Source of the DNA: Candidatus Bathyarchaeota archaeon
GTDB taxonomy: Archaea > Thermoproteota > Bathyarchaeia > 40CM-2-53-6 > RBG-13-38-9
Reading direction: 5' to 3'
NCBI GenBank assembly: GCA_026015185.1
Contig: JAOZGX010000047.1
Span: 3,475 to 67,474 of the forward strand
DNA: 64,000 bases
A program made the translations under genes and the position numbers. Positions 16,848 to 26,751 of this stretch are shown here, piece by piece. Positions within the stretch are counted from its first letter, which is position 1. The number at the start of each line of letters is the position of its first letter. Below the pieces are notes generated by a model that was given only the letters and a program-made list of their open reading frames with translations, had not been told where the DNA came from and ran no database searches.

Positions 16848-16965
16848 GGGCCGGTAGTTCAGCCCGGTATACCTTTAATACAAAGGGCCAAAGAACGTCC
16901 GGTTTGCAAGGTATTTTACCCAAAATGCCGGAAAGCCGCGGGTTCAAATCCCGCCCGGTCCACCA
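16848..16965 (+). tRNA. tRNA-Ala (UGC) with two intron-like insertions (D-arm ~23 nt; anticodon-loop region ~18 nt), CCA encoded
   Basis: Acceptor stem GGGCCGG/CCGGUCC with a G3:U70 pair. Anticodon stem UCCGG/CCGGA with loop UUUGCAA, and T-arm GCGGG-UUCAAAU-CCCGC. 118 nt against 77 nt mature. Confidence 0.8.
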
Positions 16966-19544: not shown

Positions 19545-20162
19545 CTATTCAAAATTCTGGTCCAGTTTCTTTTCTTCCGATTCTTTGATAATATCTTCTA
19601 CATCTTTTTTTTCTAGAAACAAAAAGTTCAGATTTTGTTCGATCGATTTTGATGCTTTTGTATATTTGCTACTCTCAATTTTTCCTTCTTTCTTTCCAGT
19701 TCTTATCTCTACTAAAAAGTTTGTTAATTCATTGATTTGTCTGTCTAATTCTTCTTGTCGTTGCTTCATGCTACTAATGAATTCATTATTCTGTCCCTTC
19801 AATGAATCTATCGATTGCTTCTGATTGGCTTTGAGATTTTCATAGATTTCTTTACTTACTTCTTCCTTCTCCAGCATTGCCTCCAGGGCATCCATTCTGC
19901 TTCGGAATGTATTGAGCTCTTTTATCATTTGTTCAGCCTGAATTTTCCATTCTGGTATGATTACTATCTCATCTTTATTCGTCATCATTTGCTCTGCGGA
20001 ATATTTGACTAATCTGCCTTCACTTTGATCTACCTTAATGGATTCTAATTCGCCATCAGAATTCTTTAAAATCGCCACAACTTGACCTAAATAACGTCCA
20101 TAGATGTCCCTAGTCTTTTTTCCAAAGAAATGTTTCATTTCAATATTAGAAAATGAAAACAT
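19545..20162 (-). CDS. cdvA: CdvA (PRC-barrel + coiled-coil cell-division protein)
   Basis: N-terminal PRC-barrel-like region (GRYLGQVVAI...IVIIPEW) followed by a long coiled coil and an acidic C-terminus. Adjacent to a cdvB. Confidence 0.7.
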   Translation of the reverse strand: MFSFSNIEMKHFFGKKTRDIYGRYLGQVVAILKNSDGELESIKVDQSEGRLVKYSAEQMMTNKDEIVIIPEWKIQAEQMIKELNTFRSRMDALEAMLEKEEVSKEIYENLKANQKQSIDSLKGQNNEFISSMKQRQEELDRQINELTNFLVEIRTGKKEGKIESSKYTKASKSIEQNLNFLFLEKKDVEDIIKESEEKKLDQNFE

Positions 20163-20200
20163 ACTTTCAACGACTGTTTATTTTATTTCCTAAAAGAGTA

Positions 20201-20818
20201 TCAGATTTTTGATTCCTTAGTAGGTATTGGTGGAATCTCTGGAAGCGTTTCCTTCATCTTCTGTTCAGCTACAGCCGTGGCTTCATCCAAGATTTTATTA
20301 CCTTCTTCTGTTGGAATTGATGTATCAACTGATTGATCAGTAGCATCTCCTATCTCTACAACCATATTTTGTAATGTTTCACCAATGTCTGATAATTCAT
20401 TAGAGATGTCAGGAAGAATGCTCACAAGCTGTGACTTGATTCCGTCAATTACGCTAAGAACAGATCCCATTAGATATGTGTACTCTCCAAAGTCTTTAAT
20501 CGTCTCCAGTCGTAATTTTACCTGTTCCAGAGCAAGTTGACTTTTTATTGTTGTCATCATAATTTTCCGTATTTCTGCACATTCGTTCGCATACATTGTA
20601 GCCATTTCATTTTTCTTTGATTGCAAAGCAGAAACACATTTCTTGTATAATTCTTTGTCTCTATTTTGTAATTGATATGATTTTCTCTCTAAATGCTTAA
20701 GTTGAACAGAAAGTCGATGGAGAGTCGAAGTAATCTTTCGTTTCATTGGGGTTGGATGTATAGCTTCCTTTATTCTTTCTGTAAATGATGGTTTTTTTCT
20801 AAACACTATTTTTCTCAA
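20201..20818 (-). CDS. cdvB: CdvB (ESCRT-III/Snf7 family) with proline-rich MIM2-like C-terminus
   Basis: Snf7 core (MYANECAEIRK.., LALEQVKLRLETIKDFGE) and a C-terminal LPEIPPIPT motif. Confidence 0.8.
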   Translation of the reverse strand: MRKIVFRKKPSFTERIKEAIHPTPMKRKITSTLHRLSVQLKHLERKSYQLQNRDKELYKKCVSALQSKKNEMATMYANECAEIRKIMMTTIKSQLALEQVKLRLETIKDFGEYTYLMGSVLSVIDGIKSQLVSILPDISNELSDIGETLQNMVVEIGDATDQSVDTSIPTEEGNKILDEATAVAEQKMKETLPEIPPIPTKESKI

Positions 20819-20828
20819 CTCTTTATTT

Positions 20829-21509
20829 TTATTTTATTTTTGGTGTTTCCAAAAATATTTCCTTATTTGCCATTTTAGCAATCTTAAGATTATTAGTGGT
20901 CAATAAGACCGTACGATCTCGTAAATGTTTAAGGCCTTTTAGAAATGGAATAAAGGTATTTATTGTTGGAGAATCAAGATTGGATACTGGCTCATCCAAG
21001 ATAAGAATTGGTGGATCCAAGATAAGTGCGCGAGCGATCTCAGTTTTTTTTCTTTCACCAGCACTGATTTCATTTGGTAGGAACTTGGATTTTTTTGATA
21101 TTCCAAAAAATTCCAGTAGCTCTTTAACTCGAGATTTCTGCTCAGAAAATGGAATCTTTTTTAGTAGCATTGGCAATTGGATGTTCTCATAAACAGTAAG
21201 ATCAGATATCAAAGTTGATGTTTGAAGAACTAATCCCATTTTTTCTAATCTTAGTCTTGTTATCTTTCTATCTCCAATTTTTGATAAATCTTGGCCAATA
21301 ACAGATATAACTCCCTCGCTCGGTTTTTCCAATCCTGTTAAAATATTTACTAGAGTAGTCTTTCCGGTTCCGCCCTCTCCAATAATTACAATAAAGTCTT
21401 TCTCATTTAAGCTGAAATTAAGACCATTAAAGAGACGCACAGCTAATCCATTCCTTTCGAACCTTTTATGCAGATTCTCAACATTGATCAGATATTCAAA
21501 ATCTTTCAT
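20829..21509 (-). CDS. ABC transporter ATP-binding protein, FtsE/LolD/MacB-like with degenerate motifs
   Basis: Walker A GEGGTGKTT and Walker B ILILDEP. The signature is the atypical SAGERKK, and an H-loop His is apparently absent (LLTTNN). Its stop overlaps the start of the downstream permease. Confidence 0.7.
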   Translation of the reverse strand: MKDFEYLINVENLHKRFERNGLAVRLFNGLNFSLNEKDFIVIIGEGGTGKTTLVNILTGLEKPSEGVISVIGQDLSKIGDRKITRLRLEKMGLVLQTSTLISDLTVYENIQLPMLLKKIPFSEQKSRVKELLEFFGISKKSKFLPNEISAGERKKTEIARALILDPPILILDEPVSNLDSPTINTFIPFLKGLKHLRDRTVLLTTNNLKIAKMANKEIFLETPKIK

Positions 21510-22000
21510 CGATTAAGCATCTCAGGAATATTCAATTTGGATATTTTTATCAGAGGGGATAGGCAACCAATTAAAGCTGAGATCATAACAAGAATCAATA
21601 CATCTATTATCAGCATCAATCTAGGTGCTACATTAAATAATATCATAAGAGCGATATTTCCGATAACAAATCCTATTATCGATCCTATTAAACCTATGAT
21701 TAGAGATTTGATAATAAAAAAGGTCCATAAAAAGAGCCTTTGGAATCCAATTGCACGAAAGATACTTATATCTCGGGTTCTTTGTGCAAATTCTGAATTC
21801 ATGCATAAGATAATCACACTTGTTATCAGCAATACAGCTGAAGCCATGAGAATATAATTTAATGATTGCATATTGAGCGTATTCAATTCTGTTGTAATCA
21901 CAATTAACAATACTATAGTACCTACATTCAATAATCCCAAAATTAGATTGGGAGATCGAATTTTGAATACCTGCCTAAAAATAAAAAGAAATGTGTTCAT
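21506..22000 (-). CDS. Minimal FtsX-like ABC permease domain (4 TM, no large extracytoplasmic domain)
   Basis: 164 aa. FtsX/MacB permease motif AQRTRDISIFRAIGF. Four predicted TM helices. Confidence 0.6.
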   Translation of the reverse strand: MNTFLFIFRQVFKIRSPNLILGLLNVGTIVLLIVITTELNTLNMQSLNYILMASAVLLITSVIILCMNSEFAQRTRDISIFRAIGFQRLFLWTFFIIKSLIIGLIGSIIGFVIGNIALMILFNVAPRLMLIIDVLILVMISALIGCLSPLIKISKLNIPEMLNR

Positions 22001-22505: not shown

Positions 22506-23645
22506 TTAAAGAGCTTTAAACTCCTCAAACCACTTCTCATAATGCCTGATAGTATTAGGAGAAATGCTTGGTTTTCTTCTCTTGAAAATTTCTGAGAAAT
22601 CATTCATGTCAATATATCTTGGAGCAGTATTCTTGTCTTCCGGATTGCCATTCTCAAATAGATCTCTTACCACTTTGATTTGAGCTGATTGAAAGATATC
22701 TCTTATATCGCTTCCAGAGTAGCCAGCAGTCATTTTTGAAAGTTCATTGAAATCAACATTGGGAGATATCTTAAGATTTTTTGAAAACAGCTTAAACATT
22801 TCTGATCTTGATATAGCATCAGGTAAAGGAACAAAGATCCTTTTCTGAAACCTTCTAATGAATGGGTGATCCAGTGCCCAAGGTTTATTGGTGGCACCTA
22901 TAACGTAAGAATGTGTAGATTGGTTTTTGTCCAAAATCCCGTCCATTTCTTTAAGAAATTGATTTCTCGCTCTAGCTTCGCCACCCACTTCACCAACACT
23001 ATATCTAACTAAAGAATCTATCTCATCAATGAAAATGATCGCTGGTTGATCATTAGTGCTTTTTTTCTTAGCATCTTTAAAAAGTTGTGCAACATTCTTT
23101 TCGGATTCACCAAGCCATTTTGACATTATTGAAGCTGCATCGACACAAAAGAAAGTTGCATCGATTTCGGTAGCAATAGCCGCAGCCAGTAATGTTTTTC
23201 CACAACCAGGAGGACCAAAAAACAATATACCTCCTGGCCACCCAAGTGGAAACAGATCAGGTCTTTTTGCAGGAAAAACTATTGATTCTTCTATAGCCTT
23301 TTTTGCTACTTTTAAATTAGCAATGTCGCTCCATCTAACGGAGGGCTTTTCGGTCAATACTAATTGATCAAATTTAGCTTTACCTTCATCAGAGGGTAAT
23401 AAAGTTGAGTCTTGACTTTCTGGTTGGCCACTTAAGGATTCAATCCTTTTTTTGTAAGACTCCACATGTTCCATGTATATTTTATTTTGAGGTGAATTCG
23501 GATATAGTGCACAAAGTTTCAGTAAAATTTCAATAGCCCTTTGAAATTTTGCAGTCGCTAATCCTCTGGAACCTTGTTGATCTAATTGAATAGCCTCTGA
23601 AGCATATTTGACAGCTAATTTTTCTAATTCTTCAGAAGCGGACAT
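22506..23645 (-). CDS. cdvC: CdvC / Vps4-like AAA+ ATPase with N-terminal MIT domain
   Basis: MIT-like helical N-terminus, Walker A GPPGCGKT, Walker B IIFIDEID and second region of homology. ATG at 23645 is preferred over the upstream GTG. Confidence 0.85.
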   Translation of the reverse strand: MSASEELEKLAVKYASEAIQLDQQGSRGLATAKFQRAIEILLKLCALYPNSPQNKIYMEHVESYKKRIESLSGQPESQDSTLLPSDEGKAKFDQLVLTEKPSVRWSDIANLKVAKKAIEESIVFPAKRPDLFPLGWPGGILFFGPPGCGKTLLAAAIATEIDATFFCVDAASIMSKWLGESEKNVAQLFKDAKKKSTNDQPAIIFIDEIDSLVRYSVGEVGGEARARNQFLKEMDGILDKNQSTHSYVIGATNKPWALDHPFIRRFQKRIFVPLPDAISRSEMFKLFSKNLKISPNVDFNELSKMTAGYSGSDIRDIFQSAQIKVVRDLFENGNPEDKNTAPRYIDMNDFSEIFKRRKPSISPNTIRHYEKWFEEFKAL

Positions 23646-23678
23646 AAACACCACAAGACCATTTTTTATTCAAGCTTA

Positions 23679-24233
23679 TTATTCGATTATCACTTTTCCT
23701 TCCTTTTTCAGGTAATCTACCGCTCTTTTCACATCCTCTGGAGTAACTTCTAACCAAGAGGCACATTCTGTAATGCTTAAATCACCTTTACGTTCTTTCA
23801 GATAATCATAAACTCGCTCATACAATGGCAATGCTTCTCCATCCGTTGTTAAAGCTACAGGTTCAGGTTTGTTTGACTCTTTGGAGAATGTTGGGAAATC
23901 TGGTATATCGGGGAATTGTTCTTTAATTCTCTGTTCAGCAAGTATATTTGATTCTTCTAAAACCTTTTTTGCTTCTTGATTTGCAGCAACTTCCTCAATA
24001 TTTCTTACCGATGGTACAGCTGCTTCGGTACTTAACTCGTTTAGCATAGAGTTGACATCTTCAATACCACTAGCCACTTCGGGAACAAAATCTGAAATCC
24101 TATTTTCAGTTTCTTTTAAAATGCTCATTACTGGGTTTAGATTTGTCAGAACGTCTTTAAATTCGGAAATCCTTTGAAGTCTAATAACAACCTTTTCTAA
24201 AGAAAGCTGACTACTTATTGCTAGTTTTACCAT
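23679..24233 (-). CDS. cdvB: CdvB paralog (ESCRT-III) with MIM2-like motif and C-terminal winged-helix-like domain; real N-terminus encoded upstream (to about 24446) without canonical start
   Basis: The annotated ORF starts mid-Snf7 domain. The upstream in-frame sequence encodes ...LKDKLSQVIYQLNDQ...AKIYANECAEIRK, contiguous with MVKLAISSQ. The C-terminus contains FPDIPDFP and LSITECASWLEVTPEDVKRAVDYLKKEG. Confidence 0.6.
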   Translation of the reverse strand: MVKLAISSQLSLEKVVIRLQRISEFKDVLTNLNPVMSILKETENRISDFVPEVASGIEDVNSMLNELSTEAAVPSVRNIEEVAANQEAKKVLEESNILAEQRIKEQFPDIPDFPTFSKESNKPEPVALTTDGEALPLYERVYDYLKERKGDLSITECASWLEVTPEDVKRAVDYLKKEGKVIIE

Positions 24234-24465
24234 TTTCCGTATTTCTGCACATTCATTCGCATAGATTTTTGCATGTGAAAAATCCTTAGTAACTTGAGCG
24301 CCTACACACTTTTGGAGGATTTCTTTGTCTCTTTGCTTAAGTTTTGATATAGAGTTTTCTAGGTTTTCTAATTGATCATTGAGCTGGTAAATTACCTGCG
24401 ATAATTTATCTTTAAGAGATTTAGAGGGGAGAATCTTTCCCTTTATCCTCTCGAGGATTGAAATC

Positions 24466-25458
24466 TCAAAAATCCTCCCTTATTTTAACTATAATTTTAT
24501 CTTTTGGTTCATCTGAAGTTGTTTGGGTTTCTTCTTCCTCAATGGTTGAAGAAGTCATGTCGTCTTTTGGTTCTTCTGAAGTGGCCTGGGTTTCTTCTTC
24601 ATCTATGGTTTCTTCTTTATCCGTGGTTTCTTCTTCTTCCTCTTCTTCTTCCTCTGTTGAAGTTACATCATCCTTTAATTCTTCGTCATCCGTGGTTTTT
24701 TCTTCATCCATGCTTGTAGAGGTCATGTATTCCTTTGATTCATCTAAAGTTGTTTGGGTTTCTTCTTCCTCAATGGTTGAAGAAGTCATGTCGTCTTTTG
24801 GTTCTTCTGAAGTGGCCTGGGTTTCTTCTTCCTCTGTTGTTGAAATAACTACCTTAGTTTCGTCAAAGCTAATAATTTCTTTAGAAATGTCATCAATCTT
24901 ATTTTTCTCTTTTAGTGCACTCTCAATATGCTTTTGGATGATTTCTTGACAAGGTTTGAATGTCACCTCGTCCATTTCTCCCGAATGAAATTGCATTTTA
25001 TTATTGGCAAAAATAATTTGAAGTTCATTTATTTTATTGATCAGATCTTCCTTTCTCTTTTCTGCTTTTTCTAAAATATTTTCACGCGACTCTTTTATTT
25101 TTGAAAATGAGCTTTCATAATTGCTTTTCAATGATTTATAGAATTCTTCACGTATTTCTCCAGATTTATAAAGTTCATCTAGTGCATTGATTCTCTTTCT
25201 CAAAGTATTAAGCTGTCTTAGTATCCCTTTTGCCTCTTTTTCCCATGGCGGCAGGCAAATAATTCGCCCTTGCTCAATAGCCACTTGATTTATAGGGTAC
25301 TCAATGAATTCGCCTTTTCCTGATAGTGTCTTAATGGATTCAGCTTTATTATTAGCATCTAACTCAAGATTAATTATCTTGCCTATTGTTCTTCCGTAGG
25401 CATCAAAAACAGACTCGCCTAAGTATTTCTTAATTTCTTCCAAATTTTTTTCCTCCAA
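24466..25458 (-). CDS. CdvA-like paralog with long acidic Thr/Glu-rich repetitive C-terminal tail
   Basis: N-terminal PRC-barrel-like region plus coiled coil, homologous to 19545-20162 (IICLPPWEKEAKGILRQLNTLRKRINALDE vs IVIIPEWKIQAEQMIKELNTFRSRMDALE). Then about 130 aa of TTEEEETQ(A/T)TS(E/D)EPKDDMTSS repeats. Confidence 0.6.
   Translation of the reverse strand: MEEKNLEEIKKYLGESVFDAYGRTIGKIINLELDANNKAESIKTLSGKGEFIEYPINQVAIEQGRIICLPPWEKEAKGILRQLNTLRKRINALDELYKSGEIREEFYKSLKSNYESSFSKIKESRENILEKAEKRKEDLINKINELQIIFANNKMQFHSGEMDEVTFKPCQEIIQKHIESALKEKNKIDDISKEIISFDETKVVISTTEEEETQATSEEPKDDMTSSTIEEEETQTTLDESKEYMTSTSMDEEKTTDDEELKDDVTSTEEEEEEEEETTDKEETIDEEETQATSEEPKDDMTSSTIEEEETQTTSDEPKDKIIVKIREDF
24500..24600. 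repeat. Direct repeat copy 1 (~100 bp, ~95% identical to 24731-24831) inside the CdvA-like tail coding region
   Basis: catctgaagttgtttgggtttcttcttcctcaatggttgaagaagtcatgtcgtcttttggttcttctgaagtggcctgggtttcttcttc recurs with 2-3 substitutions. Confidence 0.85.
24731..24831. repeat. Direct repeat copy 2
   Basis: See copy 1. This encodes the repeated peptide KDDMTSSTIEEEETQTT. Confidence 0.85.
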
Positions 25459-25474
25459 TTTTATTTTTTTAATA

Positions 25475-26143
25475 TCAGGTTTGTGATTGTTCTCTGGTTC
25501 TATAATCCGAGGCTTGAGTGGAATCTGATTCCATAGATGTAAAGTCTGGGAATTTCTCTTTCACTCTCTGCTCAGCCACTGTTTCAGCCTCGCCTAAAAT
25601 TTTGCTAGCTTCTGAGCTTGGTGCTTCTGTATTAATATCTTGACCAGTGGCTTCACCTATCTCAACTACCATACCATTGAGTGTCTCCCCAATATCATCA
25701 AGTTCATAGGACATTTCAGGCATTATACCACTGATTTGTGTCTTCACAGATCTCACGACTTCGGTAACAGGTCCCATTAAAGCAGCAAATTCTCCAAATT
25801 CACGAATTGTTTCTAATCTTAATGATACTTGTTCTAAGGCAAGTTGACTCCTAAGAGTTATTGCAGCCATCTTTCTTACTTCAGCACACTCATTAGCGTA
25901 CATGGCAGCTCGAGCAGAGTCTTTTGTCATTTGGGATGAGACACATTTATCAAATAATTCTCTGTCGTGTCGTTGCATCCTCATTACAGCATTTTCTAGC
26001 TTATTTTGTTGAGTTCGTAACCGGTAAATAGTTTTCGAAATTTTTTCCTTAAGACTCGGTTGCTGCTGTAGTATACCTGAGAATTTTATATTAACGGGTG
26101 GACTTTCATCTTTATCCCAGTTTTTTATCCTATTACTTGGCAA
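25475..26143 (-). CDS. cdvB: CdvB (ESCRT-III/Snf7 family)
   Basis: Snf7 core (MYANECAEVRKM, LALEQVSLRLETIREFGE) and a C-terminal FPDF motif. 222 aa. Confidence 0.8.
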   Translation of the reverse strand: MPSNRIKNWDKDESPPVNIKFSGILQQQPSLKEKISKTIYRLRTQQNKLENAVMRMQRHDRELFDKCVSSQMTKDSARAAMYANECAEVRKMAAITLRSQLALEQVSLRLETIREFGEFAALMGPVTEVVRSVKTQISGIMPEMSYELDDIGETLNGMVVEIGEATGQDINTEAPSSEASKILGEAETVAEQRVKEKFPDFTSMESDSTQASDYRTREQSQT

Positions 26144-26412: not shown

Positions 26413-26751
26413 ATGTCTGAAAGTTCAAATGATACAGAGAAAGAGGCAGAAGTAGCACCAAAAGCAAGAACTCCTATCCCCCCAGACACCATACTAATAG
26501 GTAGCAAGCCAGTCATGGCCTATGCAACGGCTGTTATGATGCATTTCCATGGAGGTAGGAATACCTTAACTATTAAAGCCAGAGGTAGAGCCATTAGCAG
26601 AGCAGTCGATGTAGTCGAAGTTGTACGAAGGAGGTTCTTTGGAGGTAAATTAGCAGTCAAAGATGTACAAATTGGAACCCAAGCTCTAGGTGAGGGCGGA
26701 GACGTAAGGAACGTATCTACAATAGAAATCAAAGTGGAGAAAAAAGATTAA
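26413..26751 (+). CDS. albA: Alba DNA/RNA-binding chromatin protein
   Basis: 112 aa with Alba core (IGSKPVMAYATAVMMHFHGG..TIKARGRAISRAVDVVEVVRRRF). Confidence 0.85.
   Translation: MSESSNDTEKEAEVAPKARTPIPPDTILIGSKPVMAYATAVMMHFHGGRNTLTIKARGRAISRAVDVVEVVRRRFFGGKLAVKDVQIGTQALGEGGDVRNVSTIEIKVEKKD

Follow-up and report, generated by a model that had tools for sequence, protein, structure and literature searches.

A Bathyarchaeota cdv operon in which CdvA carries a long acidic repeat linker before an E3B-type C terminus

The cdv locus and its CdvA proteins

The window analyzed here is a 64,000-nt stretch of contig JAOZGX010000047.1 (assembly GCA_026015185.1) from a Candidatus Bathyarchaeota archaeon, and the subject is the cdvA gene of its ESCRT-type division (cdv) locus. 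The encoded protein is a CdvA with a PRC barrel, the CdvA coiled coil, and a Thr/Glu-rich tail of ~130 aa, which ends in a motif of the E3B (ESCRT-III/CdvB-binding) type. Residues of this tailed CdvA are numbered from the TTG codon at 25458 (330-aa version). Related loci are referred to by L numbers and family proteins by P numbers. The features of the locus are as follows.

24466..25458, minus strand: cdvA, the "second CdvA" of the first-pass annotation (CdvA2), 330 aa from TTG 25458 in the open reading frame (ORF) listing
25240..25437, minus strand: PRC-barrel domain, residues 8–73 (Pfam PF05239, E = 1.5e-5; score 25.4 bits, cut-off 21.2)
24835..25197, minus strand: CdvA coiled-coil domain, residues 88–208 (Pfam PF18822, E = 4.5e-18; score 65.9 bits, cut-off 30)
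24508..24858, minus strand: acidic Thr/Glu-rich linker, predicted to be disordered, residues 201–317, made of degenerate 21-aa (63-nt) units (Tandem Repeats Finder [TRF], period 63)
24469..24507, minus strand: E3B-type β-strand motif, peptide PKDKIIVKIREDF (conserved ending, motif score)
23679..24464, minus strand: cdvB, whose product ends in a winged helix; 261 aa when read from ATT 24464, 184 aa from ATG 24233 in gene finders
23682..23840, minus strand: winged-helix domain of CdvB, modeled as the "broken" type (AlphaFold and Foldseek)
22506..23654, minus strand: cdvC/Vps4 with MIT, AAA, and Vps4_C domains (Pfam; synteny with L001, L002, and L006–L012)
25475..26143, minus strand: upstream ESCRT-III/CdvB paralog (CdvB'), 222 aa, no winged helix (Pfam Snf7, E = 2.8e-5; 24.3 bits, under the gathering threshold of 27.3 bits)
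19545..20818, minus strand: second pair, a CdvB paralog at 20201–20818 (205 aa, no winged helix) and CdvA1 at 19545–20162 (205 aa) (Pfam)

In the AlphaFold model of the tailed CdvA, the PRC barrel is formed by β-strands across residues 16–68 with a predicted local distance difference test score (pLDDT) of ~90, and the coiled coil consists of three long helices (residues 71–98, 104–158, and 164–200; pLDDT 86–97). The solved CdvA of Sulfolobus islandicus (9s9g) matches residues 7–226 with an E value of 7.5e-19. A database entry, MCW4032624.1 at NCBI (P0001; "CdvA-like protein [Candidatus Bathyarchaeota archaeon]", 325 aa), is 100% identical to the protein and begins five codons downstream of TTG 25458, at TTG 25443; both TTG codons are in frame. 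The latter is probably the start of cdvA (325 aa), because a GGAGG sequence sits 8 nt upstream of it. The start in the ORF listing overlaps that Shine–Dalgarno sequence (25441–25458, minus strand).

The first-pass annotation recognized two CdvA paralogs in the window, and the two proteins are indeed related (26% identity over 187 aa, BLASTP E value of 6e-26). It took the 205-aa protein at 19545–20162 as the canonical CdvA and the tailed protein as the second, and these labels have to be exchanged. The genes on the minus strand are arranged in the order CdvB', tailed CdvA, winged-helix CdvB, Vps4/CdvC, Lrp/AsnC regulator, FtsX-like permease, ABC ATPase, CdvB paralog, and CdvA1. This order is kept in contigs from other samples (L001 and L003 at 79–88% identity, L002 at 47%). 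The cdvA, winged-helix cdvB, and Vps4 genes lie on the same strand, an arrangement present in at least eight related loci, and the position of CdvB' is kept in all of them. A neighborhood of Alba/CdvB', CdvA, winged-helix CdvB, Vps4, and Lrp is found in L001, L002, L003, and L006 as well as in the distant Bathyarchaeia loci L011 and L012. In L011 and L012, the CdvA slot is occupied by a 227-aa protein ending in SRDVVVIKMREPT; the L011 protein shares 27% identity with the tailed CdvA and 17% with CdvA1. By its place in the conserved slot upstream of the winged-helix CdvB and Vps4, as in L011 and L012, the tailed protein is the canonical CdvA's positional ortholog.

CdvA1 is an extra copy. Its tail is 10 aa long, it has no E3B-like site, and it is paired with a CdvB that has no winged helix, so that the second pair, which is also present in L001 and L002, serves as an internal control. 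Tail-less CdvA proteins form a recurrent class, with 13 among about 150 family representatives.

Among the closest published designs is that of Sulfolobus, in which CdvA consists of a PRC domain, then a coiled coil, a flexible linker, and E3B. The E3B strand completes a "broken" winged helix of CdvB, which it binds with a Kd of ~6 μM, and thereby recruits ESCRT-III (Samson et al. 2011; PDB 2XVC). It is located at the extreme C terminus, at residues 221–238 in Sulfolobus acidocaldarius (Saci_1374) and as SEIPLPIPVKVINTL in S. islandicus. The protein from the window shares with the Sulfolobales CdvA (9s9g, 2XVC) this succession of parts and a gene placed directly upstream of winged-helix cdvB and CdvC/Vps4. 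It differs in a linker of ~117 aa, whereas the linker and E3B segment of S. islandicus together have 33 residues, and in the extreme acidity of this linker and the near-identical repeats that compose it. The locus differs in an extra ESCRT-III gene before cdvA, a second CdvB-CdvA pair 3.6 kb away, and the overlap of cdvA with the ribosome-binding site of cdvB. Canonical Bathyarchaeia CdvA proteins (~227 aa; L011, L012) occupy the same genomic slot and have the same E3B-type ending, but are only 27% identical to the tailed CdvA and have a linker of ~20–30 aa that is neither acidic nor repetitive. The tailed protein is thus an unusual variant of a known CdvA design and not a new system.

The acidic linker and its repeats

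The tail measures 132 aa from profile position 200, and the linker proper spans residues 201–317 (~117 aa). Residues 201–330 hold 38 Glu, 26 Thr, 15 Asp, and 12 Ser (29, 20, 12, and 9%, respectively), and Ser and Thr together make up 29% of the 132-aa tail. The linker has a net charge of −43 (net charge per residue [NCPR], −0.37). Its mean hydropathy (0.311) is far on the disordered side of the Uversky order/disorder boundary (0.545). The AlphaFold model shows no secondary structure there, with pLDDT values of 33–45 in the linker and below 50 for residues 204–330, compared with 86–97 in the folded core. Taken with the 63-nt array, these values bear out the earlier description of the tail as acidic, repetitive, and predicted to be disordered. 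The best 60-aa stretch of the tail contains 55% Asp + Glu, whereas none of the other 83 open frames of at least 100 aa in the window exceeds 28%. As the CdvA tail is the sole strongly acidic low-complexity segment in the 64 kb, a general habit of the genome to form such tracts was rejected. On the opposite strand, the tail codons give rise to one further frame.

24458..24949, plus strand: spurious Ser-rich antisense ORF, 163 aa, a mirror reading of the GAA/ACN-rich tail codons

It had already been dismissed as spurious, and the conserved in-frame C-terminal motif of CdvA fixes the coding strand.

For comparison with the family, a CdvA profile was run against 1.84 billion representatives, which gave 442 matches at E ≤ 1e-3; the best 150 of the 442 were analyzed. 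Most of these CdvA proteins have a linker rich in Pro, Ser, Thr, and Glu followed by a terminal hydrophobic–basic strand, such as DVVVVHVKE, PIVLRIKEA, or PIPVKIIE. The median tail of the E3B class is ~36 aa (about 36–40), a value that rests on a strict regular-expression sorting in which many ends of the PIPVKIIE and PLVLRL types were left as "none". With 132 aa and an Asp + Glu fraction of 0.42, the tail of the window protein is the longest and most acidic in the E3B class among these 150.

The array contains two near-identical blocks and a homopolymeric Glu run.

24500..24600, no strand assigned: promoter-distal near-identical block, encoding EEETQATSEEPKDDMTSSTIEEEETQTT, the unit that adjoins E3B; 98/101 identity to 24731–24831
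24731..24831, no strand assigned: promoter-proximal near-identical block, whose 63-nt core is not in L003 or L001 (DNA alignment)
24628..24655, no strand assigned: (TTC)9 on the plus strand, i.e. (GAA)9 on the coding strand, which encodes the E-run and lies between the blocks (TRF; alignment)

The near-identity of the two ~100-bp copies noted in the first-pass annotation is real, but its figure of about 95% is too low: 98 of 101 positions agree (97%), 89 of 90 agree over 24511–24600, and the longest exact run is 85 nt, far beyond chance. The copies are not a simple tandem duplication, as they are 231 nt (77 aa) apart within a degenerate periodic array of 63-nt (21-aa) units (TRF period 63). 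Alignment with two close relatives places the difference more exactly. Exactly 63 + 12 nt are missing from L003, namely one 63-nt unit and 12 nt in the GAA run. In L001, that unit and a further in-frame block are missing, the GAA run is likewise 12 nt shorter, and the protein has 58 aa fewer in all. All tail indels in this three-way alignment are in frame. Because the 63 nt specific to the window, together with their flanks, are an exact copy of the unit adjoining E3B, the alignment indicates that the core of the promoter-proximal block is a recent insertion in the window lineage, probably by duplication or gene conversion.

Two further close relatives found in a metagenome scan, L013 and L014, contain the same unit types in other orders and an additional (DEEETT)n run, and in both the array is cut off by the contig end. 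The organization of the array is thus different in each of the five close relatives, through in-frame changes, and the suggestion that copy number varies among related strains proved correct. More distant lineages have their own repeat units of 17–21 aa, yet a common ending. The units of L007–L009 are 51 nt long (DEYASDEFAKTEDIPKT), and L007 contains at least 3.3 of them, all 100% identical; L006 has three 63-nt units at 84%; P0004 contains EDTAETEDSKVTETDEETP twice and P0006 contains YSTSEFSKTEEPESETPKTEE in 2.5 copies. Contigs of eight relatives (L005, L006, L007, L008, L009, L010, L013, and L014) are interrupted in the tail array by a contig end or by N-gaps, which are located at 1600–2160 in L006 (N runs), near position 1 in L007–L010, and at the 3' ends of L013 and L014. 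Assemblies break systematically at the CdvA repeat, and in related contigs from metagenomes and metagenome-assembled genomes (MAGs), CdvA is often cut short or missed by gene calling.

The statement in the first-pass annotation that such a tail is not a described feature of CdvA stands only in part. A linker followed by E3B is known, and unstructured Glu-rich extensions were reported on Bathyarchaeal CdvA-like proteins such as KPV61682.1 (Makarova et al. 2024, mBio, PMC10936438). The window protein resembles these in its CdvA-like core and Glu-rich extension predicted to be unstructured (38 Glu in a 130-aa tail, pLDDT < 50). By their description, those proteins are additional copies outside the cdv locus (PMC10936438), whereas the window protein is an in-locus copy with E3B, and in this it differs from what was published. 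A profile search of a 5.8-billion-protein set did not surface KPV61682.1, and its matches were dominated by CdvA proteins of ~280–300 aa, several named Nitrosopumilus. A scan of the GTDB species genomes with the CdvA alignment gave two loci only, one of them identical to L002; the clade with the tailed CdvA is rare in that set.

Long low-complexity tails as such are common, with 100–326 aa among the surveyed representatives, including those named Nitrososphaerota or Cenarchaeum. Long and often acidic tails like that of the window protein occur in Nitrosopumilus-named CdvA (~282–286 aa overall), in a Cenarchaeum protein of 370 aa (P0247), in a Nitrososphaerota protein of 367 aa (P0191), and in P0200 (469 aa; Asp + Glu fraction of the tail, 0.31). 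These proteins end in DWLSRMxxQ, in [VI]VYSTQ (three cases), or in TVCPTQ (P0191), while the window protein ends in E3B. More generally, the C termini of P0108–P0255 fall into discrete classes: a majority with an E3B strand and a class without a tail; a class ending in DWLSRMxxQ or xWLxRxLK, which looks amphipathic, includes the Cenarchaeum protein as one example, and reaches tail lengths of 326 aa; and a class marked by very acidic tails of 170–270 aa, three ending in [VI]VYSTQ and one, named Nitrososphaerota, in TVCPTQ. The representatives named Nitrososphaerota or Cenarchaeum end in motifs of the DWLSRMxxQ or [VI]VYSTQ types and have no E3B, in line with the report of thaumarchaeal CdvB without a winged helix (PMC10936438). 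These other motifs may bind a different partner where CdvB has no winged helix.

The C-terminal peptide, cdvB, and the neighboring genes

The first-pass annotation had proposed looking for an E3B-like, CdvB-binding peptide at the extreme C terminus of the tailed CdvA, and such a peptide is present. The protein ends in KDKIIVKIREDF, which matches the C-terminal E3B motif of the family. The ending [KR][IV]REDF is invariant in orthologs of 45–56% identity whose linkers are unrelated in sequence; their endings are KDKIIVKIREDF, KDKIIVRIREDF, PDSIVVRVREDF, or PDRIVVRIREDF. As to the further suggestion that homologs might reveal the tail as a conserved domain, the end motif is conserved and the linker sequence is not. 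The conserved terminus, KIIV[KR]IREDF, has the core I-x-V-K-[VI] in common with the E3B of S. islandicus (PIPVKVINTL), and DKIIVKIRE of the window protein resembles DVVVIKMRE, the ending of canonical Bathyarchaeia CdvA. A motif learned by expectation maximization (EM) from 129 C termini of the CdvA family, [QP][QPD]P[IVW][VF]V[HRK][IVM], was scored against shuffled tails as the null. With 4.5 nats, the terminal KDKIIVKI outscores every other site of the protein and exceeds the 99th percentile of the shuffled tails (3.2 nats). The E3B of S. islandicus scores 8.1 nats, and the best site in CdvA1 scores 1.1 nats and is located within the coiled coil, not at the C terminus.

The putative partner of this peptide is the CdvB encoded directly downstream.

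Peptide feature, no coordinates: C-terminal CdvA peptide SDEPKDKIIVKIREDF, predicted ligand of CdvB residues ~200–261

CdvB matches the solved CdvB2 9s97 (E = 5e-36) and CdvB 9s9j (E = 4e-29). In an AlphaFold model of its last 72 aa, three helices fold within the last ~55 residues (mean pLDDT 72), and the terminal GKVIIE is not packed; the chain stops at this sequence, one strand after the helices. The Foldseek matches of the model are all winged-helix or helix-turn-helix folds, including 2xvc_A, the Sulfolobus CdvB winged helix in complex with E3B (probability 0.98, template modeling score 0.73, root-mean-square deviation 1.4 Å). As modeled, the CdvB ending fits a "broken" winged helix of the kind that E3B completes.

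The beginning of cdvB overlaps the end of cdvA.

24462..24479, minus strand: cdvA/cdvB junction GGGAGG-ATTTTTGAG-ATT, with the Shine–Dalgarno sequence in the last cdvA codons and the stop TGA (24466–24468) in the spacer

ORF finders and public gene calls give cdvB as 182–184 aa, because its first ~77 conserved codons contain no ATG, GTG, or TTG (24233–24479, minus strand; the same holds for L001, L002, L003, and L006–L010). The frame is open to 24479, and the extra 77 codons align with the N termini of Bathyarchaeia CdvB proteins of 261–266 aa at 100% coverage. The Shine–Dalgarno sequence overlaps the R-E-D codons of REDF, and an AUU codon is located 9 nt downstream; the cdvA start at TTG 25443 and other genes of the operon have a similar spacing. 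Since the junction A-GGGAGG-ATTT[T/C]-T[G/A]A-[G/A]-ATT-TC is nearly invariant in nine loci while adjacent synonymous sites vary, cdvB probably uses this conserved Shine–Dalgarno sequence inside the cdvA end and starts with AUU at ATT 24464. The junction also suggests a tight translational coupling of cdvB to cdvA. The cdvB of L011/L012-type Bathyarchaeia has a normal GTG start after a spacer of 11–14 nt.

A different role of the junction was considered. In the +1 frameshift site of prfB, a slippery codon follows a Shine–Dalgarno sequence at a distance of 2–3 nt and borders an in-frame stop. A similar layout surrounds the cdvA stop, AGG-GAG-GAU-UUU-UGA-G (24462–24482, minus strand), and a shift there would fuse CdvA to CdvB. 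The Shine–Dalgarno sequence and the stop are conserved, with UAA as the stop in one of the nine loci. The slippery codon is UUU in four of the nine loci and UUC in five, and a shift from UUC to UCU leaves a central mismatch; judged by these codons, a programmed frameshift was set aside as the principal reading and is unlikely.

Some other neighbors of the locus were also noted. Between Lrp and the second CdvB-CdvA pair, the minus strand at 20829–22000 encodes a short permease of the FtsX family (164 aa) along with an ABC ATPase (226 aa). They are kept in L001, L002, L006–L009, and the P0006 contig and are not present in L011 and L012; an FtsEX-like pair in an ESCRT-type division locus is curious. 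An Alba chromatin-protein gene (26413–26751, plus strand) lies beside the cdv operon, as it does in L001–L003, where it is on the opposite strand, and in L011 and L012, where it is on the same strand as the cdv genes. Further away, Rfam detected a tRNA of 115 nt at 16848–16962 on the plus strand (49.5 bits) and ARAGORN detected none; it is probably an intron-containing archaeal tRNA.

Proposed design of the tailed CdvA and alternatives

Here, we propose that the protein at 24466–25458 is the canonical CdvA of the Bathyarchaeia cdv operon, whose linker has been expanded to a polyanionic disordered tether before E3B and is turning over by means of its repeats; we consider this probable. The N-terminal 200 residues, comprising the PRC barrel and the coiled coil, would be the filament-forming core, and the last ~10 residues (KIIVKIREDF) would be the E3B strand that is presented to CdvB and recruits ESCRT-III as in Sulfolobus. 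An ordinary flexible linker, with a family median of ~36–40 aa, would have grown to ~117 aa by replication slippage combined with unequal recombination or gene conversion among units of 51–63 nt. These processes may be ongoing, because of which the near-identical units would be specific to each lineage and strains would differ in their number and order. Selection would keep only the reading frame, the acidic and disordered character, and the terminal E3B. The linker would then most likely act as a long, self-repelling tether or brush that projects E3B from the CdvA filament and sets the reach and spacing of CdvB capture; it could also hold filaments, DNA, or membranes apart electrostatically.

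Several points weigh against this proposal. The structural match of the CdvB winged helix to 2xvc_A is only at rank 25 among many generic winged-helix matches, and a PDB sequence search with that domain did not retrieve 2XVC. The score of the terminal motif (4.5 nats) is below the family median of 6.6 nats. The repeat copy number of the window comes from the assembled contig alone. We infer the binding of E3B to the winged helix from the motif and the model, and the tether or brush function by analogy. Finally, that long tails persist in every lineage of the clade could also reflect mere tolerance.

The last point leads to a neutral expansion, in which a slippage-prone GAA/ACN-rich stretch ballooned where only flexibility was needed and no function was added, an account that we regard as possible, though unlikely. 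It would explain why neither the linker sequence nor the unit type is conserved between lineages and why complete tails among close relatives measure between 79 and 132 aa (two more copies are cut by contig ends), and canonical Bathyarchaeia CdvA works with ~20–40 aa. However, every lineage of the clade, down to ~47% identity, keeps an acidic tail of ~80–130 aa (NCPR −0.13 to −0.34), and none has become short again. A genome-wide slippage habit is not the cause either, as the window contains no second ORF with a tract of this kind.

A bolder form of the proposal, which we put forward only tentatively and hold to be improbable, takes the linker as a selected element. As a polyelectrolyte brush or spacer on CdvA filaments, comparable to the disordered linker of FtsZ, it would define the geometry of CdvB capture through its length and charge, and would perhaps exclude or mimic DNA; the cdvA end, doubling as the ribosome-binding site of an AUU-started cdvB, would couple the synthesis of the two partners. 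If so, the series of linker lengths from strain to strain would be a natural allelic series for tether length against ESCRT-III ring assembly.

The linker could instead be an active electrostatic module: a DNA mimic or autoinhibitor that acts against DNA or membrane binding, or a binder of the basic N-terminal half of ESCRT-III subunits, maybe tuned by phosphorylation of Ser and Thr. The net charge of −43 and the 29% Ser/Thr in the 132-aa tail would suit such a role, the N-terminal halves of the three CdvB paralogs are basic (isoelectric points of 9.6–10.2), and the review literature gives CdvA as a membrane binder and DNA binder. On the other hand, the linker has no conserved sequence feature, its charge density differs 2.5-fold among orthologs, and the annotated genes of the cluster include no kinase or phosphatase. 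This purely inferential idea is doubtful.

An extra repeat copy could also have been created by the assembly of a short-read MAG. Contigs of relatives do break in the tail, by ending there in L005, L007, L008, L009, L013, and L014 and by N-gaps in L006. In the window, however, the longest exact repeat (85 nt) is shorter than typical read and k-mer lengths and should be resolved by ordinary reads, and assemblers usually collapse repeats and would seldom add in-frame copies. The inserted 63 nt preserve the frame and the conserved C terminus, and independent assemblies from other samples contain other in-frame variants of the array. As the run is resolvable and the outcome in frame, a real allele is favored and an artifact is very unlikely.

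As a last alternative, one CdvA could bind several CdvB molecules if the internal units served as additional, degenerate E3B sites. The array directly adjoins E3B, the unit EEPKDDMTSSTIEEE runs in register with the terminal DEPKDKIIVKIRED, and MAFFT placed canonical E3B sequences on the first unit. However, the internal units score ~0.1–0.4 nats and the true terminus 4.5, the units have Ser or Thr where E3B is hydrophobic, and the units of other lineages (DEYASDEFAKTEDIPKT) are unlike E3B. This alternative was rejected on the motif scores and is extremely improbable.

For the family, the proposed design of a canonical CdvA with an expanded linker has several consequences. The annotation of the locus is corrected, with the tailed protein as the operational CdvA, and the predicted partnership of E3B and the winged helix reaches beyond Crenarchaeota. 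MAG assemblies broken at the repeats and cdvB genes called without their 77 N-terminal residues matter for comparative studies of archaeal ESCRT systems. With the terminal E3B strictly conserved, the CdvA linker can expand ~threefold over the family median and take on a strongly polyanionic character. Bacterial and archaeal FtsZ likewise consists of a polymerizing core, a disordered linker of highly variable length and sequence, and a short conserved peptide that binds partners; for the function of that linker, disorder and length reportedly matter rather than sequence. The likeness is in layout only, as the folds and partners of FtsZ and CdvA are unrelated, and the role of the CdvA linker is putative. 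The expansion described here suggests that the linker is an element through which the Cdv ring architecture can be tuned, comparable to the FtsZ linker.

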